DNA of 63,323 bases, filler included, from Kipferlia bialata (Eukaryota), in assembly GCA_003568945.1 (NCBI GenBank). It is 5 parts of 5 records of this genome, joined end to end, with 100 filler letters (N's around TTAATTAATTAA, not from the genome) between each part and the next. Parts side by side here need not be neighbours in the genome. Positions count along the whole stretch, not along the records: positions 28,932 to 43,277 come from BDIP01000830.1; 4 more parts are not named here. The stretch is one strand, 5' to 3'. The notes beneath the pieces are model-generated. The model was not told the origin of the DNA and did not search any database. It saw only the letters and a program-made list of their open reading frames with translations. The translations under genes were made by a program, and so were the position numbers. Positions 1,711-43,277 of this stretch are shown here, in pieces; the stretch's first letter is position 1, and each line of letters starts with the position of its first letter.

Positions 1711-2806
1711 ATGGTGAGTGCATAATAATGAGTGTATGGGGTTGGGATGTATGTTCTTGCCATAGTGATTGTCCTCACATATATCGATACGGCATGTAAC
1801 AATCATGTGAAGTGTGTGATTCTAAGAATAGAAACGTGCAGGGAACTGTACACCGCTTCTTTACTCACTGTAGTCACCTCCATATTTCGGTCTCTCCCAC
1901 TCTCTCTCCCCTTATCTCCTCCTTCCATTCCCTAGCTCTCTTCTGATTCAGCAGGGAATACCGATTCTAGCCATCCGCCTATATGTCTCTCGACGCATAA
2001 TCCCCCCTTCATCTCTCTGCCCCCCCCCCCCTCTCTCTGCCTCTCTCTCTCTCTGTGGCATCCCCCTACATCTCTTTGTATAGGTCTTCTTTCCCTCAGG
2101 GAACTGCTGCCTCCTACTACTCACTCTCTCTCCCTACATTATTGTGTATGTGAGATAGTATGTATTTCTCTCATGCTAGGGAACCGCTGCCTCGTATGTC
2201 GCCCCTTCCAAGCCCAGGTCATTCCTCACAGCCATCAACTGCATGGACGGGAGGTATGCACTGTGTACATTATATAGTATACTAACTGTAATGATGATTG
2301 TTTCTATGTATGTCCCCAACTGCATGGATGGGAGGTATTTTCATACGTATACTATATACTATTAAGTAATATCCTTGTATGTCACACGCTTCTCTACCCA
2401 CTTTCCCTCTGCTCCCCCCCCCAACCTCTCCCTCTAGTATCAAGGCACAGGTCGTACTGTGGTCTATCTCTCCCTATTCTCTCTCTTACCCTCTCATCCT
2501 CTACTACCAGGACCCAGATCCAACTAATCAGATGGATCGTACACTTCTTTGTTTTCACTCCCTCTCTCTCTTTCTCTCACTCTATCTCTCACTCTATCTC
2601 TCTATGCTCCTCTAATACCAGGGCCCAGATCCCACTGATCAGGTGGATGATGGAGAAGTTTGAGGTATGAATATATGATATTATATCACTAATGCTGACC
2701 TCTCTCTCCCTCTCCCTCTATATGTGTGTATATTTACCATTCCAATATATACTATTCCTTATGTCTAACAATAGGGTGACTACGTAGACTCCATCACCGA
2801 GGCTGA

Positions 2807-2842
<36 letters not shown>

Positions 2843-4355
2843 GTGTCGTATATATATATATCTATATGTATTATACTCTAACATATCTAATTATAGGGTG
2901 ACTATGTGGACTCCATCACTGATGATGACCTCTCTATCTTCCTCTATCCCCCTCTCTCTCTATATATATAATGACATATATATGTGTGGGTGTACTATGT
3001 ATATATATCTAACGCCAGGGTGACTATGTAGACTCCATCACTGAGGCAGGGCCTGTCAGGTTCTTCGCCATGGGAGACAGTGCACCCCAGAAGCACAGGT
3101 GGATATAATATATTCCATGCATAACAGATACTGTCTCTCGATAGTGCATGTGTGTATATATGTTATATCCACTCACCCCAGAGACATATATGCCAACATG
3201 ATGGAGAGGATCGACATCAGTGTGCACAAGCACGGGAGCAGGTAGAGGATACATATAGTATAGTATATATATACTATAATATGTACTATATATGTATATA
3301 TATATAGGATAGACATCAGTGTGTACAAGCATGGGAGCAGGTGGGTATTTATATGTATATATTTATTATATATATACTATACTATGTAATATATGTATAT
3401 CTATGTATGGGATCGACATCAGTGTGCACAAGCACGGAAGCAGGTATAGTATCCATATAGGTCTACATTCACAGTTTATCGTCTCTGAGAAAGCACGTTC
3501 TCTCTCTCCACACTCTTAATAGTTCTTAACCCCAGGGTCATCATCATTGCTGCCCATCCATCCTGTGCTGGCAATGTGTGCTGTGACAAGGATCAGGTAT
3601 ATACTATATATATATACTATATTATATAGATACTATATATATATAGTTTATATAGAGTATATATAGTATGCAATGTGTGCTGTGACAAGGATCAGGTATG
3701 TATATTGCTATATGAACTCTCTATATACGTACGTACATATAGTATGTCCCATTAATTACATTCTATGTGTACTGTGACAAGGACCAGGTATGAGATATAT
3801 ATGTGTTGATTAATGCGTGTGATTGTTACTATATAGTTCCATGTATTATTTGCAAGTATGTATATGTGTGTTGTGACAATGACCAGGTATCGTGTGTTCA
3901 CGTCTATCCATATATACATATAGCATCTGATAGCTCTCTAGTAGTATATTTCGAGACTACCACCATATATATATGAATTTTGAAGTTGTATATACAATTG
4001 AATTAGTTGTAACCCCCAGAAGACCCAGCTGCACCAGGCCGTGAGGACTCTCAAGGGTCTGTACCCATCCTGCAGGGTGGAAGGTACTCTCTCTCTCTCT
4101 CTCTCTCTAACTCTAACTCTAACTCTATGGATATTCGTATACCTAGACACATACTTAGACTTCTCGTCTTCTCTCTCTCCCCCTCTACACCCTTAATGCC
4201 AGGTGTATGGGTGTCTCTCTAACTCTACACCCTCCATTCATTTATACATTGGTCGCTCTCTCTGTCCCTCTACACCCTTAATCCAAGGTGTGTGGGTGTG
4301 GCCTGACAGTGGCAAGGACTGGGAGGACGTGGAGGTGGTGGTCATAGCGGAGTAA
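1711..4355 (+). CDS. Putative carbonic anhydrase, prokaryotic beta-CA-like family (Pro_CA_2-like), about 8 exons
   Basis: Spliced product M|GTAASYVAPSKPRSFLTAINCMDGR|AQIPLIRWMMEKFE|GDYVDSITEAGPVRFF..|..ERIDISVHKHGSR|VIIIAAHPSCAGNVCCDKDQ|KTQLHQAVRTLKGLYPSCRVEG|VWVWPDSGKDWEDVEVVVIAE*. Contains the C-x-D-x-R and H-x-x-C zinc ligand motifs of beta-type carbonic anhydrases. The ATG-only first exon at 1711 is inferred. Confidence 0.8.
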
Positions 4356-5013
4356 GATGCACTCTATCATGGCGTCCCTATCTGCCTCTATATTGAAGAG
4401 ACTCTCTACTTGAGAGAGAGAGAGAGATGGAGGTGGCAAGGACTGGGAGGACGTTGAGGTTGTAGTCATCGCAGAGTGAGGGGGAGATAGAGAGAGAGAG
4501 AGAGAGATTAAGGTCGTAGTCATAGCAGAGTAGGCAGACAGATGCTTGATGGTGTATTAATAGACAAGACAATTACCTGAGGAAGTGTGGTTTTAGTATG
4601 GACTCCATAGTATGGAGTACGAATCATACTATGGAGTGTGTGTTGTATGAGATGATTAATGAATTTATGAGAGTTCTCTCTGAGAACTATCAGGCATTGT
4701 GGATACTCTACCATTGATATACGATAGGGCTGATGATCCCAAGTATTCAGCCAAGACCCAGAGTCATGTAATAATTATCATTGCTAACCGGCCTATTGCT
4801 TCCACCAATACTGATGGTGTTGATGATAGTGATTTTCAGCCATTGGGACTTCATCAGCATTGCTGACAGCAACACTACAGTATAGTACATACTCTATTTA
4901 CAACAAGAGTGATATCCTCAGACGGCGGCCACCTCTCACAATCTCCAGTGGAGATTCTCCACTGACACTCTCTCATTCACTGTCTTATAGTCACAGTATA
5001 TATACTAGACCTA

Positions 5014-5818
5014 ATGGATCCAGCAACACTGCGTGAGAGGGCTGTCCACGCCCTCCGCTACTCCTTCCTAGGGGATTCTCTCTCCATGCCTGTGCACTGG
5101 TACTACAGCGTGGCAGACATATACAAGGCATTTGAGGTGGGTTAGTTACCTTCAAAAGCACACATTCACCTAACCCCTTAGAGTATAGAACACCATAGTC
5201 ACCTCTTATGATACAGGGTGGTGTCACCAAGCTGGAGTCCGCCCCCACCCTCCACCCCTCCTCCATCATGTCCCTACACTCCACTGCACATGGGGGGAGA
5301 GAGGGGACAGAGGGAGGTAATAGTGATACTAGGCCTACTAATACTAATACTATTGCTGATGAATACCCCTCCTCCATCATGTCTCCAGAGCACATGGGGG
5401 AAGGCAGGGTCTCTTTGGGAGGTACTACAATATATGTATTGGTAATTACCATAACTATTTTACTAATATATACTGCACATTGGGGCAGAGAGGGTACATC
5501 TGGAGGTAATGACACTAGGCCTAATAATACAGATACTATTGCTGATGAATACCCCGAGGTATACATTTTTCCTATACACCGTAGAATAGTGACACACTAG
5601 TACGTATTGTATGTGATCATAATATTCATAGGGATGGACGCTGCACCTGGGGGTAGGCAGGGTACTTTTGGAGGTATTAGTACCAGTTAGTGGGATACAT
5701 TTATAACTATATGTAGTACTGATTACAGGCACCACGGAGATAGTGGGTGACGTGATACTCAAGGGCAAGAGGCAGTACTGGGGTGTGGCCAACATGCACT
5801 ACCACCAGGGGATGAAGG

Positions 5819-5850
<32 letters not shown>

Positions 5851-7674
5851 TTGATATTGTATACAGAGCTGAATACCCTTTGAATTCAGTGTGATTGAAT
5901 CACTGATTCTAGTGCAGACAGTCGTCATATATACCCAACATGCACTACCACCAGGGGATGAAGGTGGGGGTTGTGTGTGATACAGTGCTACATTAACCAG
6001 TGATCAATAATGATTAATCCGTTATTAATAATCACTGTAGATTATGTGTAATTATACTGACATGCACTACCACCTGGGGATGAAGGTGTATATATTCATT
6101 GTATACAGAGCTGAATTCCCTTTGAAATCCGTGTGATGATATTGCAGACAGTAGACAATCTTCCCAACCTGCACTACCATCAGTGAATGTGCAGGGCTTA
6201 TGAATATTCTTATACATTAATCACTGTACTACAGTCTGTAGATTCTGTGAGATTAGACTGACACATAGGCAGGAGAGAACACCCTCAACCTACAGTGTGC
6301 CAGACTGGTACTCAGGGAGGTGGCACAGGTATCATTGTCAACCAGTCATATTCATTGAGTACTAACTTATCAATATTTACTATTTAGTGATTCAGTTTTC
6401 ATACACTGCCTTAGGTATCTGATACTTTACCTAACACCAGGGCCCCTACAACGCCGACACCTTCCTCTCAGACACATATATGTATATTCACTAGCACTTA
6501 TTATTTACTATTCAACCTATGCAAGGTACTACATTCTCCCTACCACCAGGGCCCCTACAACCCAGACACCTTCCTCGCTGACTACGTCGCCTACATGACT
6601 GCTGACCCCCCTGCATACCATGACACATATGCAGAGTCGTTCCACAGAGGGTTCTTCGACAACATGCAGGGCGGAAAGTACGTTATATTGCGAAGAATAC
6701 TACCCTATACAGTGTAGATGTGCTCTCCACAAGTATTTCTTGTAATTACAGTCTAACTTGTAATATACAAGTTCACTTGCCGATATATCCAGCAAGAACC
6801 TTAGTAGCAGTTACAGTACCGGTGATTCTTACTCTAGGGATCTGCACGAGTGCGGGGCAGCCACGCATGACACAGCATCCATTGGGGGTGAGTAGTGTAT
6901 ATTGTGTAGCACATACAGTATCATAGCATTGAATCACTCTTGACAAGAATCTTGTACATTCACTGATGACACTGTGAAGAGGTGTTGTATGTGTATAATG
7001 AACCTCGTCTCACACTCAGGTCTTGCCACCATAGCACCCCTGGCCCTACCCTCCCTTCTCAGAGGCATGTCTGTAGTAGATGTCCAGAGAGTCTGCCGCA
7101 CACACCTGCACCTTACACACCCATCTGATACTCTTTACAGTGTGTGTGACGACTATGTGAGTCTGATCTCTGAGCTGCTACACATAGAGGAGGGTATAGA
7201 CCCTAGTACAATTGTAGAGGCATACCTCCTCAGCGCATCTCCCACTGCCACACCAGCAGAGTGGATGAAGAGTGCCAAGGACACTGAAGTAGTCGGTGGT
7301 GTCTACAGCCCTGCCTGCTACATATCGGACTCGTGGCCATCCACACTCTACCTGGCATACAAGTACCTACACTCCACTGGTCCAGACTCTGTGAAGCAGG
7401 GTCTCCTTGCCAACGCCAATGTAGGTAAGTGAAAGACGATATTAGTCGCCAAGACGTCAGTCTCTCAGCTGGTAATGGTATTGTACACTCTTACTGAATA
7501 ATTGTAAGACTACTGTATATACATACTAACCCAGGTGGTGACAACTGCCACAGGGGTGCAGTCCTGGGTGTGATACTGGGCCTATGCACTGTGGACACTG
7601 AGGCTGACACTCTCTACTCTGGCCTTGTAGAGCATGACGCCATTGAGAAGGAGATACAGACAGCCATAGAATAA
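5014..7674 (+). CDS. ADP-ribosylglycohydrolase (ARH/DraG/crystallin J1 family)
   Basis: Exons encode FLGDSLSMPVHWYY, HYHQGMK|AGENTLN, HDTYAESFHRGFF, SPACYISDSWPSTLYLAYKY and LLANANVG|GDNCHRGAVLG, matching the GDAL..P and N-x-GGD-x-x-x-RG motifs of this family. Stop TAA at 7672-7674. Confidence 0.88.
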
Positions 7675-8012
7675 GGCCTGTAGAGAGTCTCTACTAGAGA
7701 CACTCTATTATAGAGAACAACTGAGTTGTCCTACGTGTTATACACTGACATAGTATCCAAGCGATTGAGTGGGAGACACGTGCAGCCATAGAATACGAGT
7801 GAATGAGTTACTGTCTACAGAGATTCGGTACACGAGTCCCCAAATTGACATAGCAAGCCAATGATGCGTATCGGTTGTGTCTCCATACATATCCACAACA
7901 AGCAAAAGAATCTCTATCGCAGAAAGAACGAAAACTCCGTCTCTCTACTACTCCCTCTTGACCCACCAAATACTATACCCATGACAGTATATCATACTAT
8001 CTATTCTCTGCT

Positions 8013-8871
8013 CTACTGCTCCCTCTTGGCAGCTGGGGCCCTGTCTCCACCTCTGTCTCCTCTGTTGCCAAAGGAGCGCTTGCCTAGAGGTTAATACTAA
8101 ATACCTCTCGCATTCAAAAGTAAACAGGAGCGCTTACTGCAGCTAGAGGCTACAGAAGATATAAATATATATATTGTGTTGGTACCTCTGAAGCCTCCAC
8201 GTCCGCCTCTGCCACCACGGAAGCCACCACGGCCCCTGCCGCCTCTGAAGCCACCTCTGCCTGGGGTTACAGGGAGAGTGACAAGAAGACTCACACACAT
8301 AATAGAAGAAGACACTTATGCCTGGTGATACAGAGAGAATGAACAGCACTAACTCAATAAACACACTTCTAATTGAAACCCAAATAATGAACTGTAAAAC
8401 GTATAGATGCATACCTCTGCGGCCACCCCTGCCGCCTCTCGTGCAAGGTTATGTATATATGTATAATTCTATGTATATGTATATATGAATAATACTACTA
8501 TACATATATAGTGCATACCTCCACGGCCACCCCTGCCGCCTCTCCCTCCCCTTCTTCCTCCACGGCCACGACCACCACGGCCTCCCCTGGGGTGAGTAGG
8601 CTCTACACACGAAAACTGTATATCTACAAAATGATACCCGCTGAATGTAACACAAAACACATGGCTAGATCAATACACTATAACACTATAACAATAATGC
8701 ATTACTATTATAATACCTGAATCCCCCGCTCTGTCTGTGTCCAGACCATGATTCATAGATACACATAATTAGACCAGCAAATAATCATATATTACTGTAT
8801 CTATCACGTTATTATTACTATATTGTACCTGAATCCGCCGCTCTGCCTGTGTCCAGACCATGACACATACT

Positions 8872-8902
<31 letters not shown>

Positions 8903-10520
8903 AACTTTAGAATGTATTGCTATATATATATAGTACCTGAATCCCCCGCTCTGTCTGTGTCCAGACATGCCTCTCTATCTCTCATATTCACACGAAAGAT
9001 ACCTCATAGACAGTATATAGTACAGGTTAACATAGAAATACCTGAATCCCCGCTCTGCATTCTAGTATAAGTAACTACTATTAACTACTACTATACCTGA
9101 ATCCGCCGCTTTGTATACACGTATAGGACTAATATTATATGTAGTACCTAAATCCGCCGCTCTGTCTGTGTCCAGACATGCCTCTCTGTATATCTCTAAT
9201 TCATACAAAAATACTTCACATATAGAAGTATATAGTACAAATTAACAGAGAAATAACTGAATCCCCGCTCTGCATTCTAGTATGAAAAACTATTATGAGT
9301 TACTATTTCAATACCTGAATCCCCGCTTTGAATACACGTATAGGACAAATATCAATATAGTACCTGAATCCCCCGCTCTGCATTCTAGTATAAGTTTCAA
9401 TACCTAAATCCAGCATAAAATTACTATATAGTACCTGAATCCCCCGCTCTGCCTGTGCCCAGACATGCCTCTGTCTCTGTCACCCTCTGTCCTGGGGGCA
9501 ACATAGGACATCATCTGAGGGGTGAGGTTATACATGTATGTAGAATGAGAGAGCGACAGTATAATGGAAGAATTATGAAAGGGCGACATATGACATCATC
9601 TGGGGGGTGAGGGAATATATTCAAATGCTTATATACTATAAGTATGTAATAGTTACAAAGGTTTATAGGACATCATCTGAGGGGTGAGGGATATATATAT
9701 GTATATACATTATTAATACACTAAGAATAGAGTTATGGTTGTAATTGTTACACAGGCCCATAGGACATCATCTGGGGTGAGGGTACTCATATATTCAGCT
9801 AGAGAGAGAGAAACACAGTATATAATGGAAACACACACTGCAAGAATTATGAAAGGGTAAAATAGGACATCCTCTGAGGGGGGTGAGGGTACATACACAT
9901 ATATACTCGGTATATATCAACAGTCACAAAGGTCCGTAGAACATCTACGGTGAGGTTACATCAGTCAATGTATGTAGAAAATCGATGTTCTTATTGATAT
10001 ATAGTCACTATATATACCTGGTTCTCTGGGCATATGTCTGCATCAGATGGCAGCACCAATATCACATACGTATATACATGTATATATATGTGTATTAATA
10101 CATATGTATATATATGTGTGTGTAGACCTGGTTCTCTGGGCATATCTCTGCATCCTCGGGTAGCACGACAAGGCCAGCCTTCCCAGAGGGGACAGAGGGG
10201 GGGTACTCAGTGCCCACAAACCTAGGGGTTAAGAACCGTAAATATATATATATATAAATAGACATATATATATATAGAGAGAGAGAGAAAGGACAGAGGG
10301 GGGGTACTCAGTGCCCACAAACCTAGAGGGTTAGGACTACAGTAACAGGTTTGCATATACCGAGATATTACCTGTTTGCCTCGAAGTTGTATCCGATGAG
10401 GTCGTCTCTACCAATATTATTACATATACTTATAATTATTACAATGGATATATATATGAGTATATATAATTTTGTACCTGTTTGCCTCGAAGTTGTATCC
10501 GATGAGGTCGTCTCTACCAA

Positions 10521-10551
<31 letters not shown>

Positions 10552-10682
10552 TATTACAATGAATATATCTATAATACATATATAATGTACCTGTTTGCCT
10601 CGAAGTTGTACCCGATGAGGTCGTCTCTCTCGATGGCCCTGCCAATGAGGGACCGGAGCACAACGGTGGCATAGCTAGTTGT

Positions 10683-10733
<51 letters not shown>

Positions 10734-10852
10734 TGAGTGAGTGAGAGAGACTCTTCCAATGAGGGACCTGAGCACAACGGTGGCATAGCTGGAGATTAGA
10801 GAGAGAGAGAGAGAGANNNNNNNNNNNNNNNNNNNNNNNNNNNNNNNNNNNN

Positions 10853-10893
<41 letters not shown>

Positions 10894-12430
10894 GTGAGTG
10901 AGAGAGATTCTTCCAATCAGGGACCTGAGCACAACGGTGGCATAGCTGCAGGTCAGTGCATATAGATTTGTAGTATATGGAGACATATATCAGGGACCGG
11001 GGAGCACATGTGGTTGGAGTACCCTTTATCGAAATATGCCAACATAAGTGTATCTATATACAACCACAGTACCTGCTGGATCCGAGTGTGAATCTGACGT
11101 GGAGAGAGACAAAGTGGCCATCCCTTGGGGGGACAACGACCTGGGTGAGGTATGGTAACATATGTAGTGAATAGTTAATGAGCGTCAAGCACTTGTGTAG
11201 ACCACAACTGATAATTGTGCACATGTACAGTACAGAAATAGTATCGTGCAGTTATTTAAATGATAAAGTGGATACCTTCACGGGCTCCTCAACCTTCTCC
11301 TCTGGCTTGGCCTCAGCCTAGATAGTGAGAACATGGGTGTATACATATGATATGACATAATGAAAATACATACGATATGATATAAGAAAGAAACTCTGAA
11401 CATGTACAATCTTTGGATAAGTGATATGTTTACACTCTTCACAAAGGACAAATTGCTAAATGAAGAGACCATAGTGGCTATACCTCAACCTTCTCCTCTG
11501 GCTTGGCCTCAGCCTCAGCCTGGGGTTAACAAGTGGAATTAATCGATGCATTTGTAATACACAATACCTTCATCTCTACGTCTCCCTCGGCCACCACGGC
11601 CTCAGTCTTGGGCTCAGCCTTGGGTAAGAACAGATACATACCAACCATTACGGATACGGGTGTACGTCAATATCTCTATTTCACTACCAGAGAGGGTACG
11701 GCAATTACACAAATGCTAAAGAATACGATATGAATACTTGATAGTGTCCAGATAGTAAAGAAAAATGTATATACCTCGGCCTCTGCCTCTGCCACTGGCT
11801 CAGCTGCCTTCTTCTCAGGCTTGGTCTCCTCAGTGACAGGCTGGTATGAATATATACATCTATATATATATAATATGAATAGGGGTGTGGAGGCAGAAAT
11901 GAACGACTAGCGGTATTACATGGTGAATAATGAGATATACAAGAGAGATTGTACCTCGGCCTTAGGCTCCTCAGCCTTCTCCTCTACATGCTTCTCAACA
12001 GGCTTCTCCTCCTCCTTCTTCTCCTCTACCTTGGGCTCAGGCACAGGCTGCATGTGAGTATACATACATATACATATGTATCTATCATTAGTAACGAGTA
12101 TTGCAATGGTATATCACAATATATGTATATATTGAGGGAGAGAGAGAGAGTATATGTACCTCAGGGAGTGGCATTGCCACGCACACCTCCTCAGGGAGAG
12201 AGAGAGACAGTGCCTGGTTGGCACGGACAAAGGCCTCCTCGGGGAGAGAGAACATGGTCCTGGGAATAAGGGTGTAGGGGGAGAGCACCAGTGTAAAGTA
12301 CCTTATCCCTTTCCTACAAATCTATTATTGACTATTATAATTACTAAACATATATATGAATATGTGCAGTATATATTTGTGTATACCTCTTGACCTTGTG
12401 TACTACCATGGCCATGTAATGGATTAATGC

Positions 12431-12471
<41 letters not shown>

Positions 12472-13049
12472 TCTAATACAAATTGTACATATATACCTCT
12501 TGTCTTTGTGCACCACCATGGCCACATCGATGTCAGACACGGAACGGATGACCTAAGGGTTAGTGTATACGCATACACAGCACATATTAACGGAGAATAG
12601 TTTCATACATTTACAGTACCCTAGGCCGAATGCTTCTTATTAAAGAGAAAGGAATTACATAGGTCTATACACATATAAACCTGTCTGTATCTTCCAGTGA
12701 CGCACATGTCCTTGGGTGCCCTAGATAGAGGACTATGCACACCTATGCACTCTATATATACATGTATATATATACATATATATAATGTATATATACCTGT
12801 CTGTATCTGCCTGTGACACACATGTCCTTGGGTGCCCTAGGAAGATGACTACTATATATACATACACACCCTACATATACGTATATACAGTGTATACTTA
12901 CACACCCTACATATACGTATATACAGTGTACACATATGTACTTGTATGTATATGCATATATACCTGTCTGTATCTCCCAGTCACACACATGTCCTTGGGT
13001 GCCCTGGGCAAAAGACTTTCTATATCTATATGCTCTATATGTCTATGGA

Positions 13050-13086
<37 letters not shown>

Positions 13087-14285
13087 TATACCTGTCTGTA
13101 TCTCCCAGTCACACACATGTCCTTGGGTGCCCTAGGTAGAGGACTACTATATATACTTACACACCCTATATATACATATATACAATATATACATATAATT
13201 ACCTGTCTGTATCTCCCAGTGACGCACATGTCCTTGGGTGCCCTGGGCAGAGAGTCAAACCCATGCTCAAAGCCATCGGCCTTGAGCAGCTCGTTGATGT
13301 ACTCGCCTAGGGGGTTAGAGGAAGACATAAATATATCAGGCTATATGTATACTTGTAGATATCCATGTACCTATCTCTCCCTTGGGCAGCAGGACTATCC
13401 TACAATAATAACCATTTACAAATATTTACATCTACGATACTATTTGTATACATATATATACATGTTCCTATCTCTCCCTTGGGCAGCAGGACATCCCTAT
13501 ATAGAAATATTCATACATTCCATACACGCACATACACGAATAGTAATAATATCAGGGATACATATGTGTACCTATCTCTCCCTTGGGCAGCAGGACATCG
13601 TGTCCGACAAGGGGCAGTACCAGCTGGGACATGTCTGAGTGTAAGAGTAATGTATGTATATACATATATAAGACACTAAAGATGTATATATGTACACTTG
13701 TATACACATAAGAATGATTTAGTACAATCCGGGACATGTCTGGGGTTAGACACCAAATGTAAAGTGAATATATAGTATATATACTATATATAGTATATAT
13801 AGTATATATAGTATATATACTATTCATGTCAATGTATAGGCAGTGACACCCTGAAGTATGTTGATAGAGATGCATATACCTGACTCATCGAAGGGTGTCG
13901 GCTCAGGAACCTCCTCCTCCTTCTCCTCCTCCTTACTCTCTCCCTCTCCCTCCTTCTTCTCTCCCTCTCCCTCCTTCTTCTCTCCCTCTCCCTCCTTGCT
14001 CTCTCCCTCTGTCTCCTTGCTCTCTCCCTCTACCTCCTGCTTCTCCTCAGAGGGTGTGGGGACATGCACAGGCTGAAAAGTGAGGACATACATGTATATA
14101 AATAGACAATTGTACAAATGAAATACTCTAAATAACAATCTATCCATATATACAGTGGGGGTGGGCACAGACACAGGCTGAAAAGTGAGCATATATATGT
14201 GTATAGAGAGAAATGAATATGAAAATAGAATACTCTAAATGACAGTCTCTCCATATATACAGAGGGTGGGGACATGCACAGGCTG
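8013..14285 (-). CDS. PUS7: tRNA pseudouridine synthase PUS7/TruD, C-terminal part, with E/K-rich inserts and RGG tail; 5' end beyond contig
   Basis: Exons QLVLPLVGHDVLLPKGEI|GEYINELLKADG..DMCVTGRYRQ and VRFTLGSSS|YATVVLRSL match the TruD C-terminal motifs (VVLPLPG, GxYR, F-x-L-x-x-S-x-YATxxLRE). Then GGFRGGRGRGGFRGG repeats and last exon GKRSFGNRGDRGGDRAPAAKREQ*. Confidence 0.82.
8713..9890 (-). repeat. Array of partial exon-end copies around one PUS7 tail exon
   Basis: About 11 copies of (plus strand) tacctgaatcc(c/g)ccgct at 8713-9450 and about 5 copies of taggacatcatctg at 9504-9880. Confidence 0.9.
12679..13250 (-). repeat. Five copies of exon end (LP)RAPKDMCVTGRYRQ + GT donor
   Basis: acctgtctgtatct..catgtccttgggtgccct at about 12679, 12795, 12962, 13090 and 13201. 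Confidence 0.95.
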
Positions 14286-14367
14286 AAGTAAGAAAACTGA
14301 GATGTATCATCTCTGTATATATATAGTGGGGGGGGGGGGGGGGGGGGGGGTGGGGCTATAAAAAAAA

Positions 14368-28931: not shown

Positions 28932-29061
28932 TATATCTATATCTATATCTATATCTATATCTATATCTATATCTATATCTATATCTTTATCTATATATAT
29001 CACAATCTATATATCTATATCTATATCTACACTGATATATATGTCTATACCTATATATTTA

Positions 29062-29094
<33 letters not shown>

Positions 29095-29106
29095 GTCTAT
29101 ACTTAC

Positions 29107-32100
29107 CTATGTGGTCCCCGTGTCTGCCCTCGACGGTGTCGGCCTCAAACTGTAGGTTGTCGGCATACTCAACCTGGGAGTGAGTATATACATACATATA
29201 CAAACGTGCCAAAGAGTAAGTCATTAGCATACTCTCAAGGTATCTGTCATGAATAAGCATATATATATATAATATTATACATGTAGAATATAGATAGAAT
29301 AGCTGACATCACACACCAGCTCCTCCTTGGCCGTAAGGCATCTGTCACGGTATGGAATATATAATATTGACAGAATATGGAATATACAACACACCAGCTC
29401 CTCCTTGGCCTTCTCCGACATCTCAGGGTGCTCCTTGTCAAGGATCTGACGCAGCCCGGTGTCCTGTTGTGAGTATACAAGTATATACATATACGGAATT
29501 ATGTATATATACGTAAATCTATATATATATATACGTATACACGTAACAACACACAGTAACCACACGCTGGAATCACACTCACACTGAATCTGATACTGAC
29601 GCAGCTCGGTGTCCAGATATATGAGTATACAAGTAGAAATACGTAACCAACACCCTATGCTATCCAGTACATAAATCACTATATAGAAAGTGCTGCTGAG
29701 AGTGTAGACAATCGTGCCATTATTGACAGATAACAATACTCATGAAGAAACATGTGTGTCCGCGTAAGCTTGTACAGAAACCATATTCAAGGCACAGCAT
29801 TCTATACTATAAAAATACTTATAGCAGGCTCCTACTGACGAATAACATTGCATGTCACTTACCCTTGAGAAGTTGTGGGGGTCCCTAACAAGCCTGGGAT
29901 TAGAGAAGAAAGAGTGAGGCGGTGGAGTGAATATCATTACATACTGAATGTGTTTTGGACATGGAAATCGAAACAGTATATCACTGAGTATCATTGAATA
30001 CATCAACTTACACAATGATAGAGTGAACCATATATATTTAGAATATATATAAATATATTTACTCCCACACCGTACCTCTTTATGCAGTCCTCCTTGTAAG
30101 CCATGGGGTTGTTCTCATCAGCTGCATAGATGGCCATGAGCTCAGCCCTGTTGGTAAGATATATATGTATGTGCACATATACGTATATATGAATATGTAG
30201 AGAGAGACTGCTAGATGTAGATGACCTACACCATGAGCTCAGCCATAGTAGTAGGAGAGGAAGAGAGAGAGAGATCGAGAGGGAGAATGATCAAATAGAC
30301 CATAGGCTTACCACTATCCAAAAGATTCACATAATACACATATGTCAATGGAGTATATAAGTATACATATATTACTGTTGTATATACACCTTGACTTGTG
30401 GTCCTCAATGTCATCGGCAGCAGTATATACAATAATGCATATATGTGTATATATACTAATACATATACCCTACATACCTTGACTTGTGGTCCTCCATGTC
30501 ATCAACTGGCACCACACGGACTAGGCCATCACCGTCTGATATGAGACTGTTGTAGAGGTGTACATACATTTGTATTCACTATCAGTGATTAAGTGTAGTA
30601 GTAAACACAAAACCGGTATCATATACTAATCACTAATACGTACCATTACGGCCACAGAAGTCCTCCTGGTTGCAGTTGAACGCCTGGATCAACCCTGGGT
30701 GAGATACACGGAGGGAGATTACAGAAAGGTAAGGTAATGTGTACATATATATGGAGTACATTGCAGAGTATGTCAATATATGTCAATGAGTAGATATAAT
30801 GTATGAATCTTATCCCGGCCAGTTTGGTAAGTTTGAAACAGGAGCTTATGCATACCCTCATCTCCTAGACGCAGCATGTCGGTGACCTCCTCTGGCATCT
30901 GCGAGATAAGAGAGAGATGGGGAAGAGAAGGAGAGAGAGAGAGTCAGATGAAGAGATACTTGATGTGGGGTACCTGTGCGAGGTTGAGCTGCCAGAACAG
31001 AGACATGAGGCTGGGGGTGAGAGAGGTACATCAGAGAAACATACACACACACATATTTATACTGATATCTCCACTTGATGTGTATATATACGAATTCTAA
31101 TGCCATACACATACCCTCCGCAATTCTCGCATCTGGGTAACTCCTCATCTGTGCCCACATAGCCATAGCCACCCCTCTGAGGTGAGTCTGTCACACAATA
31201 TGTATAGCATACATTGTATATATGGATTAATGTTTATATCAATCCTTGGACAGATAGCCATACCCACCCCTCTGAGGTGAGAGGGAGATAAGTAGAGAGA
31301 GAGAAGGAGAAAAAGAGAGAGAGAGAGACCTCGTCAGTACCCACATAGCCATACCCACCCCTCTGGTGTGAGAGAGAGGAAGAGGCGGGGAGGGGGGAGA
31401 AGGGGAGAGGAAGGGAGAAGGGGAGAGGGAGAGAGACACCCGCACATCAATCCGACTCCCTAATGACTATTCAGAATCCTGCATAACCAAAAATGTCACG
31501 TTACACTATCATGTGTATACACATACATACATGTATATGCATACATACCTTGGAGTCAAGCAGTGATCCGATCACGGGCTCAGTTGTGGCCCCCTCCCCG
31601 CCCTCCTCTCCCTCTCCCTCACTGTCCTCCATGCCCATGCCCATCCCTGCCATGCCCTGTACCTGGGCAGTGTCCTGGCCCTAGGGTCAGTACCAGTATA
31701 TGTATATTAGTATTAAATGATTCCTCGAACATATAATACTAGTGTAATAGTATAGTATATGATGCAGATGCCCTGTCCCTGGGCATTGTCCTGGCCCTGG
31801 TGTCAGTATCAGTATCAACTATATATAATAGATGATACCTCGTATATAGAGTAATAGTGTATTAGTCTATGATGTAGACACCCTGTCCCTGGGCAGTGTC
31901 CTGTCCCTAGTGTCAGTATCAGTATCAATAATACATATGTGGTGGTTCCATGCTTACGATGCATCAGAATCAGTGTCAGTTATCATAATCATATGATACG
32001 TTGCATATGATGCAGTATGTAGTATCAATATCAGTCTTATACATACATTCTTGTATATCAGTATCAGTATCATATTGTACCTCGTATATGATGTAGTATG

Positions 32101-33847
32101 CAGTGCGGTAGTGCCCGTCCAGGCACCTGTGCAGCAGGGCACCCATGTTCTCCTTCACTGACATTAAGGGTGTAGAGGGAGAGAGAGAGAGAGAGGGAGT
32201 TGTTATGCATTATATGTCCCTGACGTGTGGGTCCTAGGGCACTCTATATTTACACAAATACTGCACTTTCATCAATGCATACATAGGTAGGTATGTGTCC
32301 AGTACCTGATATGGTGTCCTTGTCCACACACTTCAATGATTATGCCCGGTAGAGAGAGAGAGAGAGAGAGAGAGGTACCTGGTATGATGTCCTTGACGGG
32401 AGGGTCCTCGGGGATGACAACCTCAGCCTCTGCCTCAACCTCCTCAACCTCCTCCTCACTCTCCTCCCCCTCACTCTGTCTCTTGATGGCTGGGGGGGCG
32501 GGGGATCCCTTGGCTGCGTGGAACCTGCAGTACCCAGCAGCATTCAGCTAGAGGTGAGTGGGTCACTGCATATACATATTATATACATTAAGAAGAGTAT
32601 TGCTTACATATGCATGTATTATATGATATTGACCAGTCAGTACCCAGCAGCATTCAGCTGGGGTGGGTATTAACATGAATGGATACTATTTAAAAGTCAC
32701 ACCATGCATGTGCATAGATAGGGAGATAAACTTGAGGATTTAGATTGTATTTATGTGTATGTAGACTGCATATACCTTTGTCTGTGTGCATGGGTCTCCA
32801 TTCTTCTTGATTCCCCTACACACAGTCACTTCCTGAAGGTAAGAAGATACGTATTCAAATGTGTTTCATCTTTGTAGGAAGGAAGGACACCAACAATATT
32901 TCCTCCTCACCGTGAGGGGAGGGATAAGGGGGCTCAAAGAACACTTCCATGGCCATATACACGTAATTATACATATGCCAAGTCATATACAAACATACAT
33001 CCTCCTCTTCCTCCATAACTGGCAGCATCCCCTATAATACCACTCATATGCCATATACGTATGTATACAACCATTCCTCCTCCTCCTCCTCCATCACTGG
33101 TATCATCTCCTCCATATGTATCATATGTTCACTAATATACTAATCAATAGAAGTATATATATAAGTGTATATGTATCATTATACCTCCTCCTCCTCCACC
33201 ATCACTGGCAGCATCTCCTCCAGCATCTCTGGACAGGGGGGTGGGCACTTGCCACCTGGGGTTCCGGTATGCACAGGGGCAGCCTGGGGTCAGTATCAGT
33301 ACCAATAAATATGAAATATATATACAAATATTGATGAATATATCTATAATGGGCATATATAAATACATATGTCTAAAGAAATACAGGGAATACATATATT
33401 GTAGTATATATATACACTTCCCCTGCCTTGGGTCCCCTGGGTGCCTTGCCTGGAGGTGCACAGCGGATGGCCTGAGGGTCAGAGAAGAATACATGTGTGT
33501 ATGAGTATATATACAATAGAAATACATATTGAAACAATATAGAGACTGATACTGATACTAGGTGTGCACATAGGATGGCCTGAGGAACAGAGGAGGCTAA
33601 GGAAGAAAACATGGGGGTATATTTACGGTAGACTCTCTTCGTATTTGCCAATACCTTGTCCCCAGCCAGCTCGTAGTATCTCTCCCAGGCCTCCTCCTCA
33701 CAGGATATGGTACATGGTGTGTATATATACAATACAACATATACATATATACATATATATCCATTTACCTTCTCCCCTGCTAACTCGCAGTATCTCTCCC
33801 TGGCCTCCTCCTCACATGATATTATATATATAGAATATGGTATATAT

Positions 33848-33881
<34 letters not shown>

Positions 33882-34238
33882 CCATTTACCTTGTCTCCTG
33901 CTAACTCGCAGTATCTCTCCCTGGCCTCCTCCTCACATGACAGGACATTATGAACTATATATATATATATATATATATATAGATAGATATACATATATAT
34001 ATATAGATACCTTGTCCCCTGCCAGCTCCCAGTATCTCTCCCTGGCCTCCTCCTCACAGGACAGGACATGGGTGGCCTCCATACCATCGGCCTTCTTCCA
34101 GCTAGAGGTTAGAGGGTGATAGAATATCACTGACAGTGATATCATACACATTAATGTATACATATAGAGATAGGGGGGGGGGAGAGAAGACATGGGTCTT
34201 CTTCCAGCTGATATCAATTATATATACATATAGGTAGA

Positions 34239-34278
<40 letters not shown>

Positions 34279-34378
34279 ATGAGTGGCCTCCATGCCATCG
34301 GCCTTCTTCCAGCTAGAGGTTAGTGTGATGTATACGTATATGAAAGAATAACAATATATGTATACATATATATATGAA

Positions 34379-34415
<37 letters not shown>

Positions 34416-35267
34416 GAGAGAGAGTGAGTAAATGTGTGGCCTCCATACCATCGGCCTTCTTCCAGCTGGTATAAGAGGAGCTGGGTATATATAGATATAT
34501 ATAGGTATATATAGATATATATATAATATGGAAAGAGAGAGAGAGATAATGACGATCTTCACGATATGGTATTTCTTCCAGATAGAGGTGGGAGAAGAGT
34601 GATATTAATAAATATACAAGGAGAGAGAAAGAGGGGAGAGGGGGGGTAAGCAACTATTCAGGAGGAATACATATACTCTGTGTGCCGTTACATATGTATA
34701 TGTATTACCTCTGTGTCCCGTTCTTGTCTGCCTTGTTGATAGAGTAATACATATGTTAATATATATATTGCAATTCTGTATATTTATAGAGAGAGAGAGT
34801 ATTAATTAATACATATATGCCTCTGTGTCCCATTCTTGTCTGCCTTGTTGATGTATGTCCTGCCATCATTGCCACGCATCACAGTGCCTGTCAGGTTAGT
34901 GCCACATCATATACACTGTATATACTATATTCCTCATCTAGGATATGACTCTCATCATTGCCACGTATCACAGTGCCTGTCAAGTTAAGAATCACCTCAT
35001 ACACACTGTATATAGTATATATACACACTTGGATATGCCTCCCATATTGCTAAGAGTGAACTATTTTGTGTCTACTTGGATAAGGTTAGTCTTGTAATGC
35101 ATTGCGGGCAGTAGCAGAAGGATATGAGACAGAGCACTGCACACAGACAGTATTGTCACAGAGTGATCGGTTCCAAATCGAAGAAGAACCTCAGACTGAT
35201 ATATCTATCCCTTACCTAGCTCTGCAGCCTTTCCAGAGAGGGGGACACTGGGTCTCTTCTGAAACAT
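29107..35267 (-). CDS. Hypothetical multi-exon protein with N-terminal RPS..GNDG..NG..WKK motif and a CCCH-type (DUF5763-like) zinc finger; 3' truncated
   Basis: Exons [70 protein letters not shown] .. [29 protein letters not shown] .. acidic stretches; about 17 short exons with YTRAC-CCC-AG acceptors. Confidence 0.65.
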
Positions 35268-35581
35268 TAGAGAGAGGGAGGAGAGAGAAGGAGAGACAAT
35301 GGAAGAGGAGTGACTGAAGGTGTCACCAATTACTCTCTGGTACGTCATTGCTGTTATTTCACTAGCAATACCACCGATATGCTACCTGGTACTTCTTGGG
35401 GATATCACCCAGGTTGACGTGAATGACCTCTGGCATTTGTGGTGGTGTGGATAGCTATGTGGGTGAACAGTGGGTAATTTGGCTGTCTCAAACGATGTCG
35501 CAAAAGGGTTCAAGTGTTTTTGTTTAGCTTGGCTCAAATTGAAGCATTTGGAGGCAGATCTCTCTCGAGGGTAACAACACA

Positions 35582-35977
35582 ATGGGTGTCTCTCCCCCTG
35601 TTACCGACAGTGCCACAGTGGAGGTGCAGGCCAAGAGGGCGACTCGGAAGGAGACGTTGGTGGGTACGTAAGGGTGATGTGCATTAGAAGATGCAGGAAG
35701 CACTGGTCAATATTCGTCCTCCTCTTCATCTGGTATCCTTACAGTACTTCTCTCACCTTCCAGCCATAGCCTATGCTGCCCTCTACGGTATCTTCTGCCT
35801 GAGGGTGAGTCGCTGATGTGTCAGGGAGACGCGAATCTGCATATTGAAACGGCATATGCAATACGCCCATTGCCTATATCTGACCCCCAGGGCTGTAACT
35901 ACATTCCCGCTCTTGGGCGTGTGAGGGCATACTTCACAGACATCCCAGCCGGTACGGATAGATCTCCTGTGTATCAC

Positions 35978-36015
<38 letters not shown>

Positions 36016-37539
36016 TTCAACTTACTCTCTCTCTATCACTGTGTCCCCATTCTCTTACTGTCAGGTCAAGGTCAATGTGAGCAGGCTCAGTGGTGACATC
36101 AAGAGGGTGTACTCAGCTGTGGTTCAGGTACCATACCATGGCAGTATATGTATACTACTCTCTGGTGCTATCTATAGGTCAGCCTCCTCTGACACCACTA
36201 GGCCGGACATGACGGCATCACTGTCAAGGAGATCAGGACAGCCACGTCCCTGTCCCAGGTCATTGTGTCCAAGGCACTCAAGGGTACGGCCTCTCCCTCT
36301 CTCTTCTTCTCTTTCTACTCCACCTGGTCTTCCACATTGTCTTCCGCATCATGTCTTTCTCTCACTCACCCTCTCTCCCTCTCTCTCCCTCCCCCCCACC
36401 CTCAGGCCTTGAGTCCTTCCAGATGGTGTCCCAGGTCAGATCAGTGACACAGGGGAGCAAGAAGGTGTGTAGTGTTATGAATGTCTCCTTTCTCCACCTC
36501 ACCAGTTCTGTATCTCTCTCTCTGACTCTAGGTGTATATCCTGATGGGCCTCCGCCCGTCCGCTGAGATCACTGGAGGTCCCTGGTACCAGGTATGTATG
36601 ACAGTGTGTGTATGTGTATGTATGTTATGGCTCAGTCCCCACTCTGCTGTGCTTCTGTCTACACATTCATACATTGCATCAGTACGCAGTGTCTGACTCT
36701 AGGGCTCCACATTCGATGAGGACCTTGTGGAGAGGCTGGTCACAAAGGCCCAGGTGAGACGACCTTTTAGTGTTGGTGCACTACTGTGGAGAGTCCTCTC
36801 CGATTCCTATATGCTTTGACTGCTGTTATTATCGCAGCAATTCGGTTGCATAGTGTTTTCATATTTCGAATACTGGTTGCTCACACTGCCAGCTGCATAT
36901 TTCCAGTGAGTTGTATTATTCGCTGCACAGTGTTCTAGTAGTATAGTATAGTAGCATGGCCACAGCCTCTCTGACTGTCAGATGTGCATTGCCAAGACCA
37001 AGATGAACGGTGCGTCTGTGGCCAAGGTCACCAGTCAGCTGCAGGCCAGTGGTGAGACCACAAAGGCCCTGAAGCCTGAGGACGTGGCTAGGTGAGACAG
37101 ACCTATGGGGTCCCTGCTCTATTGTCAGCTCTCTCTAGTCTCACACTAGGCTACTGGATGCTATGGTGGCAGAGGGTCTGTTGGAGAGGATCCAGACACG
37201 TGGCCAGGTGGGTGTTACTCTCTCTCTTCCGCCTCTTCTCTCTCTCTCTATCCTCCCCTGACCCCTAGAACCTGTATGTGTGTGTGTCAGCTATGGTGGG
37301 TGATGACGAGGTGCACTCGGTGTTGCCAGAGCTCTGCTACTCTGTGTGTGTACCCTGCATGCGGTGCCCAGTCAGGAACAGGTAGCATGCTCTGCACTTA
37401 TGCTCTTACACTCTCAACTACATATGAATATATTCTCTTCATTGCTCATCCCAGGTGCAGGAGTGGCAACGTGCTCTGCCCAGAGAAGTGCCAGTATATG
37501 AAGGCCTGGATGGATGGGGATGTGTCAATGACACAGTAA
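35582..37539 (+). CDS. RPC6: RNA polymerase III subunit RPC6 (C34/C39)
   Basis: DIKRVYSAVVQ|AGHDGITVKEIR..VSKALK|GLE..VRSV..KK|VYILMGLRPSAEITGGPWY..FDEDLV and C-terminal PCMRCPVRNRCRSGNVLCPEKCQYMKAWM; 5' exons and start uncertain. Confidence 0.88.
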
Positions 37540-37815
37540 ATTCCAAGTCAGTGAATCATCATTCCGTTACTGAGCACTCAGTGAGTAGATCTTATCTGAC
37601 ACTTGTACACCTAGTCACCTACTAGTACAAAACTGCATCAATCAACCAATTCTTTACCGCACACACACACAAGATTGGGTTCTTCATTTTTATTGTTCCT
37701 ACAGAGCAGATGTCCGGCTGACAAACGATCCGCCAACACCCACAAAAAATCATAAGGAAAGGGGTGCTTTGTCTGGGCTGTTAGACCCAGCCATCGCTAG
37801 GGGGCTGCAACCAGA

Positions 37816-37865
37816 TTAGTCGAGCTCCTCAACGGTGGGGCCGGCGCCGGCAGTGGGAGCGGGGT

Positions 37866-37897
<32 letters not shown>

Positions 37898-40133
37898 GAC
37901 ATATCGGGCATTCCACCGGGCATGCCGCCCTCCTGTCCCTGCTGGGAGGCAGCGTAGGCCTTAGCGAGCATGGGCTGGATGGTGGCCTCGATCTCCTTCT
38001 GCTTGGCCTCGTACTCCTCCTTGGTGCACTCCTGGTTGTTGTCGAGCCACTCGATGGCGGCCTCGATGGTAGCGAGAGCGGTCTTCTTCTCCTCCTCGTC
38101 AAGGCCCTTGGCCTCGTCCTGGAAGTGGTTCCTCATGGAGTACACGAAGGACTCAAGGCCGTTCTTGGCGTTGACCTTGGCGCGGAGCTCCTCGTCCTGG
38201 TCCTTGAACTTCTCAGCGTCGGCAACCATCCTGTCGATATCGTCCTGGGAGAGCCTGTTACGGTTCTGGTCGATCTTGATGGTGTTGGAGTTGCCAGTGC
38301 CGCCGGTGTCCTTGGCGGTGACGGTGAGGGTGCCGTTGGCGTCAATGTCGAAGGTAACCTCGATCTTGGGGACTCCACGGGGGGCGGGGGGGATGCCAGT
38401 GAGCTCGAAGGTTCCAAGGAGGTTGTTGTGCTTGGTCTGGGCACGCTCTCCCTCGAAGACCTTGATCTGCACAGAGGTCTGCCTGTCGGCGAAGGTGGAG
38501 AACATCTCGGTCTTCTTGGTGGGCACGGTGGTGTTACGGGCAACAAGGACGGTCATCTGCTCGCCAGCGGTCTCAACTCCAAGGGAGAGAGGGGTGACAT
38601 CGAGGAGGAGGATGTCCTGGACCTTCTCAGAGGTGGATCCAGTGAGCACGGCAGCCTGGATAGCGGCACCGTAGGCAACAGCCTCATCGGGGTTGATGGT
38701 CTTGCATGGCTCCTTGCCGTTGAAGAAGTCCTTGATGAGCTGCTGGATCTTGGGGATACGGGTGGATCCTCCAACAAGCACAATCTCGTTGACCTCGGAC
38801 TTGCCCATCTTGGCGTCACGGAGAACGCGCTCGACGGGGTCGATGCAGGAACGGAAGAGGTCCATGCAACGCTCCTCGAACCTGGCCCTGGTGAGGGTGG
38901 TGAAGAAGTCGATGCCCTCGAAGAGGGACTCGATCTCGACGGAGGTCTGGGTGGTGTTGGAAAGAGTACGCTTGGCCCTCTCGCAAGCAGTCCTGAGACG
39001 CCTCATGGCACGCTTGGAGCCAGTGATGTCCTTGCGGTACTTGCGCTTGAACTCGGCGACAAAGTAGTCAACCATGCGGGAGTCAAAGTCCTCACCTCCA
39101 AGGTGAGTGTCTCCGGCGGTGGCGCGTACCTCAAAGATACCGTCATCGATGGCAAGGAGGGACACATCGAATGTGCCGCCACCGAGGTCGAAGATGAGCA
39201 CGTTCATCTCACCAGCCTCACGCTTGTCAAGGCCGTAGGCGATGGCAGCGGCGGTGGGCTCGTTGATGATACGGAGCACCTCGAGGCCGGCGATCTGGCC
39301 AGCGTCCTTGGTGGACTGCCTCTGGGCGTCGGAGAAGTAGGCGGGCACAGTGATGACGGCCTTCTTGATGTCTCCACCAAGGTAGTCGGAGGCGAGCTCC
39401 TTCATCTTGATGAGCACCATGGAGGAGATCTCCTCAGGGGTGAAGGTACGCTTCTCTCCCATGTGGGTGACCTGGGGTTAAGGAAGGAATTATAGGGAGT
39501 GTAGAATGACACCACCGGTAAGAGTGAATAGAATCAACTAACCTGGATCCTGGGCTTGTTGCCGTCGGCACAGATGATGTCGAAGGGCCAGTGCTTCATA
39601 TCGTCCTGGACCTCGGTGTCAGTGAACCTACGTCCGATAAGACGCTTGGCATCGAACACAGTGTTCTCGGGGTTCATGGCAGACTGGGGTGAGATGAAGA
39701 CAGAAGCAACACTGTATCAGGCCCAGTATAGACACACCAGAACACAATCACTAACCTGCCTCTTGGCGGCATCACCGATGAGACGCTCGGTCTCGGTGAA
39801 AGCAACGTAGGAGGGGGTGGTGTAGTTACCCTGGGAGTTTGCGATGATCTCCACACGGTCGTTCTGGGGTTAGATACGAATCCACACAACTCGGCATAAC
39901 CATACACACACAATGCACAAAACAAGTAACAATCAAGTTCCTAACAAGATTCATAACCGTTAGAGTGCTATGAACAGAGAGGAGAGGGACCAACGCCCAC
40001 CACAACACAAAGAAAAGACAGAAATGTAATATACAACACAGAAACTCCCAATAGCTCACAATAAAGGCGAACTAACCTGGAAAACTCCAACACAGGAGTA
40101 TGTGGTTCCAAGATCGATTCCAACAGCTGACAT
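37816..40133 (-). CDS. HSP70: Cytosolic heat shock protein 70 (4 exons)
   Basis: [35 protein letters not shown]..; [42 protein letters not shown] and terminal GPTVEELD. Confidence 0.98.
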
Positions 40134-40598
40134 TTCTACTGTTTCGACGAGAGAAGGTGGTGCACTCGACCTTGCATTCCTCCGCTCAATCATAGTCGGA
40201 GAATCAGCTTGATTCATCGGAATTTCATCGGAGAATCAACTGAATTTCTCATTGGTTGAGAATCAAACTTGATCTCAATTGATTTGTTTCGTGGTGGAAA
40301 GAGTGATGTTCTTGGCTGTGTGCGGGTCTGTCCACCAGGTACTATGTCCAATCAGAGACTTGGAAAGCCAATAGGCCCAATGTGGTATGAATTCCAAGCT
40401 AGACTTGCAGTAATGGTCTCTGAAGCGTAATTGATCATGTGATTGATCTAGAGGGGTGTTGTTCGTGTAGAATTCCAATTCCTGTGAAGAATCTATTATA
40501 TCGGAAACGGTGCAAAACGAGACCGAGAGGGTGCCTGGGAGCAGGCCAACCTCTCTATCTCTCTAGGAAGGACCATATGGAAACACTATCATGCCACA

Positions 40599-41121: not shown

Positions 41122-41156
<35 letters not shown>

Positions 41157-43116: not shown

Positions 43117-43277
43117 CTAGAGAGTGTAAGGAGTGTCAACCATATATTTATACATATTGCCATATCAGAGTGGAGGAAGCGGTATCATGGAAGCACAAGG
43201 AAATATAGAATATATATGGTGTATGAGGAAGGGATGGTGGGGGGGGGGGGGGGGGGGTGGGGGGGCCCCCTCTTCCC

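Follow-up and report, generated by a model that had tools for sequence, protein, structure and literature searches.

The window, a 63,323-nt stretch of the Kipferlia bialata genome in which five contigs are joined by N spacers, contains at positions 28,932–43,277 the contig BDIP01000830.1, on whose minus strand a 19-exon gene model (35436..29107) translates exactly into protein P0001. P0001, labelled 'DUF1963, partial [Kipferlia bialata]' and carrying the Pfam domains DUF5763 and DUF1963, is the one protein matched at 100% by an exon of this gene, and its N-terminal stretch from KRPS to SWKK (34821–35258, minus strand), which we take to recall a short giant-virus protein motif, is followed by DUF5763. 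The focal exon (34101..34011) spans 91 nt between AG and GT, supplies 30 protein letters and has a Ser codon that is divided by the upstream intron. The introns around it and around its neighbours contain partial copies of exon ends, here called ghosts, with 5′ ghosts repeating the start of an exon and 3′ ghosts its end:

29107..35436, minus strand: host gene (G3a), 19 exons, partial at the contig end, with ghosts in 11 of 18 introns
34953..34978, minus strand: 5′ ghost of the upstream exon 34821..34887, from the exon-versus-flank scan
34821..34887, minus strand: upstream live exon with a GC donor; contig joint 34101 to 34821, ends CT..GC
34707..34740, minus strand: 3′ ghost of the upstream exon, whose GT donor is passed over in favour of the live GC donor
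34573..34589, minus strand: weak, decayed 5′ ghost of the focal exon, acceptor AG lost, under the scan threshold (blastn 16/17 nt, E 0.074)
34432..34467, minus strand: 5′ ghost, acceptor AG and exon nt 1–34 (34465–34432), one silent change (ACC>ACA), ending ACA CAT
34279..34323, minus strand: 5′ ghost, acceptor tract and exon nt 1–34 (34312–34279), two silent changes (GGT>GGC and ACC>ACT), ending ACT CAT; matching DNA unitig at depth 417
34191..34209, minus strand: short 5′ ghost, exon nt 1–17 (34207–34191), two changes, score 12.6
34011..34101, minus strand: live exon 4 of the DUF5763/DUF1963 gene (P0001) in the 19-exon model, joined to 33471 and 34821 in a spliced contig (presumed RNA)
33888..33948, minus strand: nearest 3′ ghost, exon nt 33–91 (33948–33890) and GT, five changes of which four are silent
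33767..33819, minus strand: second 3′ ghost, exon nt ~41–91 (33819–33769) and GT, with three or four variants in common with the nearest 3′ ghost
33653..33705, minus strand: third 3′ ghost, exon nt ~41–91 (33705–33655) and GT, with a variant set that differs from the other two
~33559–33581, minus strand: diverged 5′ ghost of the downstream exon 33427..33471, from the anchored scan
33427..33471, minus strand: downstream live exon with a GC donor, from the spliced contig and the gene model

The live exon and the ghosts that the original prediction described here are present letter for letter, as are the codon changes it named (TCC/TCA, CTG/TTA, GGG/GGA and GGT/GGC) and the W/C/Y and D/E variants. 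Five long focal ghosts score 30–48, far beyond a chance level of 9 hits scoring at least 12 in 312 kb of controls that pair exons with unrelated introns. At the focal exon the 3′ ghosts begin at nt 33, 41 and 44 and the 5′ ghosts stop at nt 34, 34 and 17; the starts of the second and third 3′ ghosts at nt 41–44 come from strict trimming, and blastn extends the third to about nt 31.

Spliced and genomic contigs both bear on the nature of these copies. A spliced contig of run X2, which we presume to be RNA, joins 34101 to 34821 over a 719-nt GC–AG intron that contains the 5′ ghost at 34432..34467, places 33471 directly against 34011 and thereby skips the focal ghosts, and agrees in its offsets with a ghost-free gene model down to 31549. 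DNA run X1, possibly the source of the assembly, provides gap-free unitigs at 29100–32166 (3.1 kb) and 32383–33732 (1.35 kb, depth 440, including the third focal 3′ ghost) that cross ghosts and live exons at a depth of about 440, twice the 218 of one half-depth unitig, and short ghost-specific unitigs of the same run have depths of 330–417. The full-depth unitigs together with the skipping by the contig thus place the focal ghosts as real, intronic and present on both homologues; since 33733–34014 and 34222–34556 are skipped as repeats in unitig placement, for some focal ghosts the order is that given by the assembly. The half-depth unitig itself (36026–36351, 218 versus ~440) is likely a heterozygous bubble in otherwise homozygous sequence. 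Two GC–AG introns in the focal gene (34707–34820 and 33282–33426, minus strand) are both backed by the spliced contig, in which the live GC donor at 34820 is used and the GT of a ghost 112 nt downstream is skipped. This preference for a GC over a GT ghost donor, with the skipping of upstream ghost acceptors, points to cross-exon definition by a reduced spliceosome. K. bialata has been assigned 87 of 174 spliceosomal proteins (PMC6679479), and the genome paper reports 124,912 GU–AG introns and a probably diploid genome, with the string 'duplicat' absent from its main text (PMC5874029).

Across the window, 15 gene models with 179 exons and 164 introns were built from a gene finder and open frames, and the models checked from outside are G3a and seven introns of G3b (both against run X2, presumed RNA) and, weakly, G1b through its Pro_CA_2 hits. 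Alignment of each exon to its own flanking DNA (score at least 12, 64 kb tested) gave 88 hits versus 9 in the 312 kb of controls, anchored at the exon 5′ end in 32 of 34 upstream hits and at the 3′ end in 44 of 54 downstream hits, with none in the wrong-way arrangement; removal of 7 of the 88 hits as low-complexity or outside introns left 81 ghosts on 37 exons. An independent anchored scan found 31 copies of 5′ ends upstream and 37 copies of 3′ ends downstream, with 0 and 0 on the wrong side, the strict polarity (68 right, 0 wrong) that one-ended tandem duplications produce. The duplicated unit consists of a 12–60-nt exon end, the splice site and ~75 nt of intron. Spacer lengths are narrow (75 ± 20 nt, near the size of a short intron), the repeat period has a median of 105 nt (51–189, n=72), and the 36 of 164 introns that bear ghosts have a median length of 329 nt versus 103 nt for the rest, a growth of ~106 nt per ghost. 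Where an intron carries both kinds, the 3′ ghosts precede the 5′ ghosts (6/6). Splice dinucleotides are largely retained, GT in 36 of 40 and AG in 28 of 32 ghosts. Intron flanks are similar over background in 19 of 72 cases and near-identical in 0 of 72, being diverged even next to ghosts with 0 differences in 25–32 nt. Tracts of (TA)4 or longer occur in 25 of 36 ghost introns versus 24 of 128 others. Among the window's ghosts, length tracks neither exon length (rho 0.20, P=0.18) nor spacer length (rho 0.01), and the nearest and farthest ghosts of an exon are equally diverged. Ghosts are concentrated in contig 1 and the focal gene, and seven genes (52 introns) are ghost-free; the contig at 28932–43277 shows a sharp boundary, with 11 of 18 introns bearing ghosts in the DUF1963 gene versus 0 of 19 in its three neighbours. 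We conclude that the ghosts very probably arose as independent, polarised, ~105-nt duplications of exon–intron junctions that are skipped in splicing.

Ghosts in the other genes extend this pattern, and three gene models on contig 1 illustrate its range:

1711..4533, plus strand: G1b, weak match to putative carbonic anhydrase Pro_CA_2; ghosts in 5 of 7 introns, 18 of 22 changes silent
5014..7795, plus strand: G1c; ghosts in 3 of 8 introns, 9 of 26 changes silent, a divergence consistent with plain dead copies
8013..14290, minus strand: G1d, TruD-like (P0002); ghosts in 9 of 16 introns, 24 of 38 changes silent

The match of G1b comprises two collinear Pro_CA_2 hits (E 0.06 and 0.11), and its terminal exon has a live TAA stop and ghosts that end in TGA and TAG. 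One 5′ ghost of the final G1b exon carries the acceptor CAG, in place of the AAG of the modelled live exon (4201–4214 and 4286–4299, plus strand). Several 3′ ghosts lie behind the stop codon of terminal exons that lack a donor (4356–4533 and 7761–7795, plus strand; 7945–7960, minus strand), so the process works without a splice donor. In G1d, where a single exon end is present in as many as 8 copies, the public protein P0002 takes a 3′ ghost (9042–9061, minus strand) as an exon and reads a Glu/Ala/Val-rich tail; with this ghost omitted, an RGG-repeat tail stands in an open frame (8013–8586, minus strand), a comparison made by eye over the last 120 aa. Such misannotation holds whether or not the ghosts are plain dead copies: P0002 includes a ghost exon and reads the RGG tail in another frame. 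A 36-nt in-frame exon of the same gene (11484–11519, minus strand) resembles a 5′ ghost of the next exon (11276–11317) that acquired a GT at the junction; both are part of P0002, and from the sequence 11484–11519 is a possible candidate for the gain of an exon and an intron from a ghost. Elsewhere in the window, a long exon holds a coding tandem repeat unconnected with ghosts (17071–17506, plus strand; period 138 nt, ~69% identity), and a 36-exon gene resembling a membrane-anchored surface protein repeats a domain piece (51023–51063 and 52170–52210, plus strand).

The focal locus had been proposed to hold two halves of one split exon that rejoin almost exactly. The break between His and Val with its 2-nt AT overlap is indeed there, since the nearest 3′ ghost starts at nt 33 and 5′ ghosts run to nt 34, and the rejoining itself does not hold up when paired breakpoints are compared with random pairing. 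Ghosts flank 28 of the 37 exons on one side only, and for the nine two-sided exons the best gaps are 42, 16, 13, 35, 13, 11, −2 (the focal exon), 115 and 35 nt, which makes the focal exon the sole complementary one. A |gap| of at most 2 nt occurs in 1 of 9 exons against a null mean of 0.82 by length-resampling (P=0.60) or 1.84 under a uniform null, and the mean |gap| is 31.3 versus 29.9 under the null. Taken by itself the focal pair has P=0.039 by length-resampling and 0.36 under the uniform null, and it was chosen because it looked complementary. Co-occurrence of 5′ and 3′ ghosts on the same exon is not significant among the 37 exons (P=0.12). Within this window we therefore reject paired breakpoints, the very result that the original prediction had named as its refutation, and the apparent rejoining is best read as a chance meeting of the ends of two events, one 5′ and one 3′. 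A duplication with one breakpoint in an exon and the other in the adjacent intron would keep the whole exon and leave a spare half-copy on the intron side, with 5′ halves upstream and 3′ halves downstream, and the nested look would then need no special mechanism.

We determined how ghosts differ from their live exons. The comparison of ghosts to divergent alleles made for the focal exon stands for the window as a whole, where 73 of 133 unique changes are silent versus 51.1 expected of a dead same-allele copy (P=9e-5), but finds no significant support at the focal exon (8/14, P=0.10) or in the focal gene (18/39, P=0.17). The 73 silent and 60 replacement unique changes between ghost and live copies correspond to a pN/pS of 0.23 (exon bootstrap 0.14–0.35), and the 45 silent and 24 replacement changes among ghosts to 0.14. 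A dead copy decays everywhere while the live exon gains only silent changes, so that dead copies of the same allele should yield a pN/pS of at least ~0.45 (about 0.45–0.5, with a 4-fold/0-fold ratio of at most 2, at the observed transition share of 0.465). With one ghost counted per exon side, pN/pS is 0.22, lower than in any of 300 dead-copy simulations (minimum 0.23, median 0.45); differences fall on 35 of 184 4-fold positions (19%) versus 33 of 830 0-fold positions (4%), a ratio of 4.8 (P(ratio≤2)=3e-4). The pN/pS is smallest in the least diverged ghosts (0.10, 0.17, 0.35). At least three states are found at 5 of 78 4-fold columns, including the focal Thr codon with ACC, ACA and ACT, versus 0 of 374 0-fold columns, and 2 of 6 informative site pairs fail the four-gamete test. 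Inside the units, divergence is low at 0-fold sites and at GT/AG, high at 4-fold sites and highest in the intron flank. Because divergence within the units tracks functional constraint, in at least some genes both copies would for a time have evolved as two working alleles; if 0-fold divergence measures later decay, they would have been ~11% apart at 4-fold sites at birth. The flank divergence could come from TA slippage alone.

The silent excess is carried by G1b (P=2e-5) and G1d (P=0.004), which lie on one contig, and G1c (P=0.68), G5a (P=0.40) and the focal gene G3a (P=0.17) each fit the dead-copy expectation; removal of either carrier leaves P=0.014 or 0.004, and removal of both leaves P=0.25. 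GC-biased change in live exons was rejected as an explanation, as 4-fold divergence is equal at GC (25/126) and AT (10/58) sites. Amino-acid changes in ghosts show no conservative bias, with 4 stops in 54 and a mean BLOSUM of −0.34 versus −0.47 under neutrality. In 8.5 kb of DNA run X1 no SNPs are listed, the one half-depth unitig alone hinting at heterozygosity. When metagenomes were scanned for a second strain or allele, P0001 produced 591 pattern hits, of which 0 were confirmed, and the HSP70 C-terminus produced 80 loci at 36–52% identity, none of them Kipferlia-like. Junction microhomology is 0–4 nt in 27 loose alignments, where spacers align poorly to the outer intron, and an apparent 5-nt case (5365–5369) may be a deleted ghost.

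Together, these data favor a reading, to which we give a probability of roughly 55%, in which separate ~105-nt tandem duplications across splice junctions left the ghosts behind as unspliced remnants; at least in some genes, the likely template was a diverged, functional haplotype, copied when homologous repair was aborted. A broken end would pair with the homologue within an exon, where homology is best, and copy about 100 nt across the junction; re-annealing would then fail and the extended end would be joined, probably by polymerase theta. The spare half has no partner splice site and is skipped. Later unequal exchange would likely multiply and mix the units into arrays with common breakpoints and mosaic variants. 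The K. bialata gene list in Supplementary Data 2 of PMC8516963 contains Spo11, four Dmc1, five Rad52 and PolQ and no Ku70, and the same source gives NHEJ as absent from metamonads and Rad51A as absent from fornicates (PMC8516963). In C. elegans, aborted SDSA followed by TMEJ yields tandem duplications (PMC8654963). More tentatively, and with somewhat less than even confidence, we suggest that introns here grow when recombination between diverged homologues goes wrong in a way specific to it: only the short exons allow pairing, DNA synthesis runs on past the splice junction, and every failed repair deposits a ~105-nt relic of a different functional allele. If the allelic reading is true, the ghosts provide a measurable route of intron lengthening and a natural experiment in splice-site choice in which a live GC donor is preferred to a GT ghost donor, and a single homozygous genome would record both former alleles and recombination between haplotypes, in a supergroup in which sex has yet to be observed.

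The simplest competing account is that ghosts are ordinary tandem duplications, dead on arrival, copied from the same chromosome or sister by slippage or alternative end-joining at TA-rich introns, with a silent excess that reflects drift of live exons and chance in two genes. We consider this unlikely, though it deserves serious weight: it predicts the same geometry and polarity, accommodates the association with (TA)n, the neutral-looking amino-acid changes and a strain that appears homozygous here, and suffices for the focal gene, G1c and G5a and for the window once G1b and G1d are set aside. Against it, the observed pN/pS of 0.23 and ratio of 4.8 depart from the expected ~0.45 and at most 2, identical ghosts should have near-identical flanks where none of 72 do, and three different stop codons and the multi-state 4-fold sites are left unaccounted for. 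A quite improbable variation lets ghost and live copies swap roles through unequal crossing-over and gene conversion within arrays, such that the resurrection of harmless ghosts alone lowers pN/pS without diverged alleles, or makes the ghosts remnants of a lost paralogue or homeologue. Sister ghosts with common breakpoints, the mosaic variants that fail the four-gamete test and the likeness of exon-derived parts next to unlike flanks all agree with such exchange, but conversion able to purge 0-fold changes should presumably also erase the 19% 4-fold divergence, at least three silent states exceed a two-parent origin, and a search for paralogues of a focal-gene exon turned up none (1 hit among 525 candidates, and no other sequence at 85% likeness).

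The remaining two accounts fare worse. Insertion of a whole exon copy with its flanks into a break in an old exon, leaving complementary halves of one old allele, would explain why the focal halves overlap by 2 nt (P=0.039 for the focal exon by itself) and the silent variants in both halves; given a single complementary exon among nine against 0.82 by chance, the predominance of one-sided exons, the lack of significant co-occurrence, and focal starts at 33, 41 and 44 facing ends at 34, 34 and 17, we regard it as very improbable. Barely credible is the suggestion that ghosts serve as alternative or mutually exclusive exons, or that the assembly chained two haplotypes. For 19 of 40 donors and 14 of 30 acceptors, the ghost splice site does equal or outscore the live site, and the stretches 33733–34014 and 34222–34556 are those that unitig placement passes over. 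A partner splice site at the far end of the ghost is nevertheless present in just 0 of 49 3′ ghosts (acceptor) and 1 of 32 5′ ghosts (donor), some ghosts lie behind stop codons, and inclusion in mRNA was tested in the spliced contig (presumed RNA), which omits the ghosts, contigs being prone to drop rare isoforms; chaining of haplotypes conflicts with single gap-free unitigs of 3.1 and 1.35 kb at ~440, double the half depth of 218. By unitigs, spliced contig and absent partner sites, we reject assembly artefact and alternative splicing as the source of ghosts.

Several known systems resemble the ghosts in part. Mutually exclusive duplicated exons and pseudo-exons are likewise intronic stretches that look like exons and carry a splice site, whereas a ghost has just a single splice site and is passed over in splicing. 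In a literature search, with most subscription journals outside its reach, we found no description of exon-end repeat arrays in Kipferlia or of allele-like divergence in such remnants. The rejoining claim does not stand, and the allele-like signal is what offers a lead. Internal duplication across exon–intron boundaries is known (the Rogers model, Gao & Lynch 2009 and Hellsten 2011, as cited in PMC4974935), and intron gain by tandem genomic duplication likewise duplicates an exon–intron segment within a gene and leaves the protein unchanged (PMC4974935). There the duplicate makes or multiplies an intron (PMC4974935), whereas in K. bialata existing introns lengthen by ~105 nt per event, repeatedly, in 36 of 164 cases, and the ghosts show a coding-type divergence. 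A new intron spliced between duplicates is not seen in those parts of the focal gene that the spliced contig covers, where it agrees with the ghost-free model, and G1d holds one candidate (11484–11519). Duplicated exons on the Drosophila Y also leave spare, mostly unexpressed copies beside a working gene, for which MMEJ has been proposed, but they are subsets of whole exons on a chromosome with no homologue (PMC8794474), in contrast to the 12–60-nt exon ends, strict polarity and narrow period of K. bialata. In C. elegans helq-1 and brc-1 mutants, aborted SDSA and polymerase theta produce a head-to-tail copy when an extended end fails to anneal and is end-joined, a likeness to the ghosts; that case is a repair-mutant phenotype whose template is usually the identical sister (PMC8654963), whereas in K. 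bialata the duplications arise in the wild type, are tied to splice junctions and were apparently copied from a diverged template.
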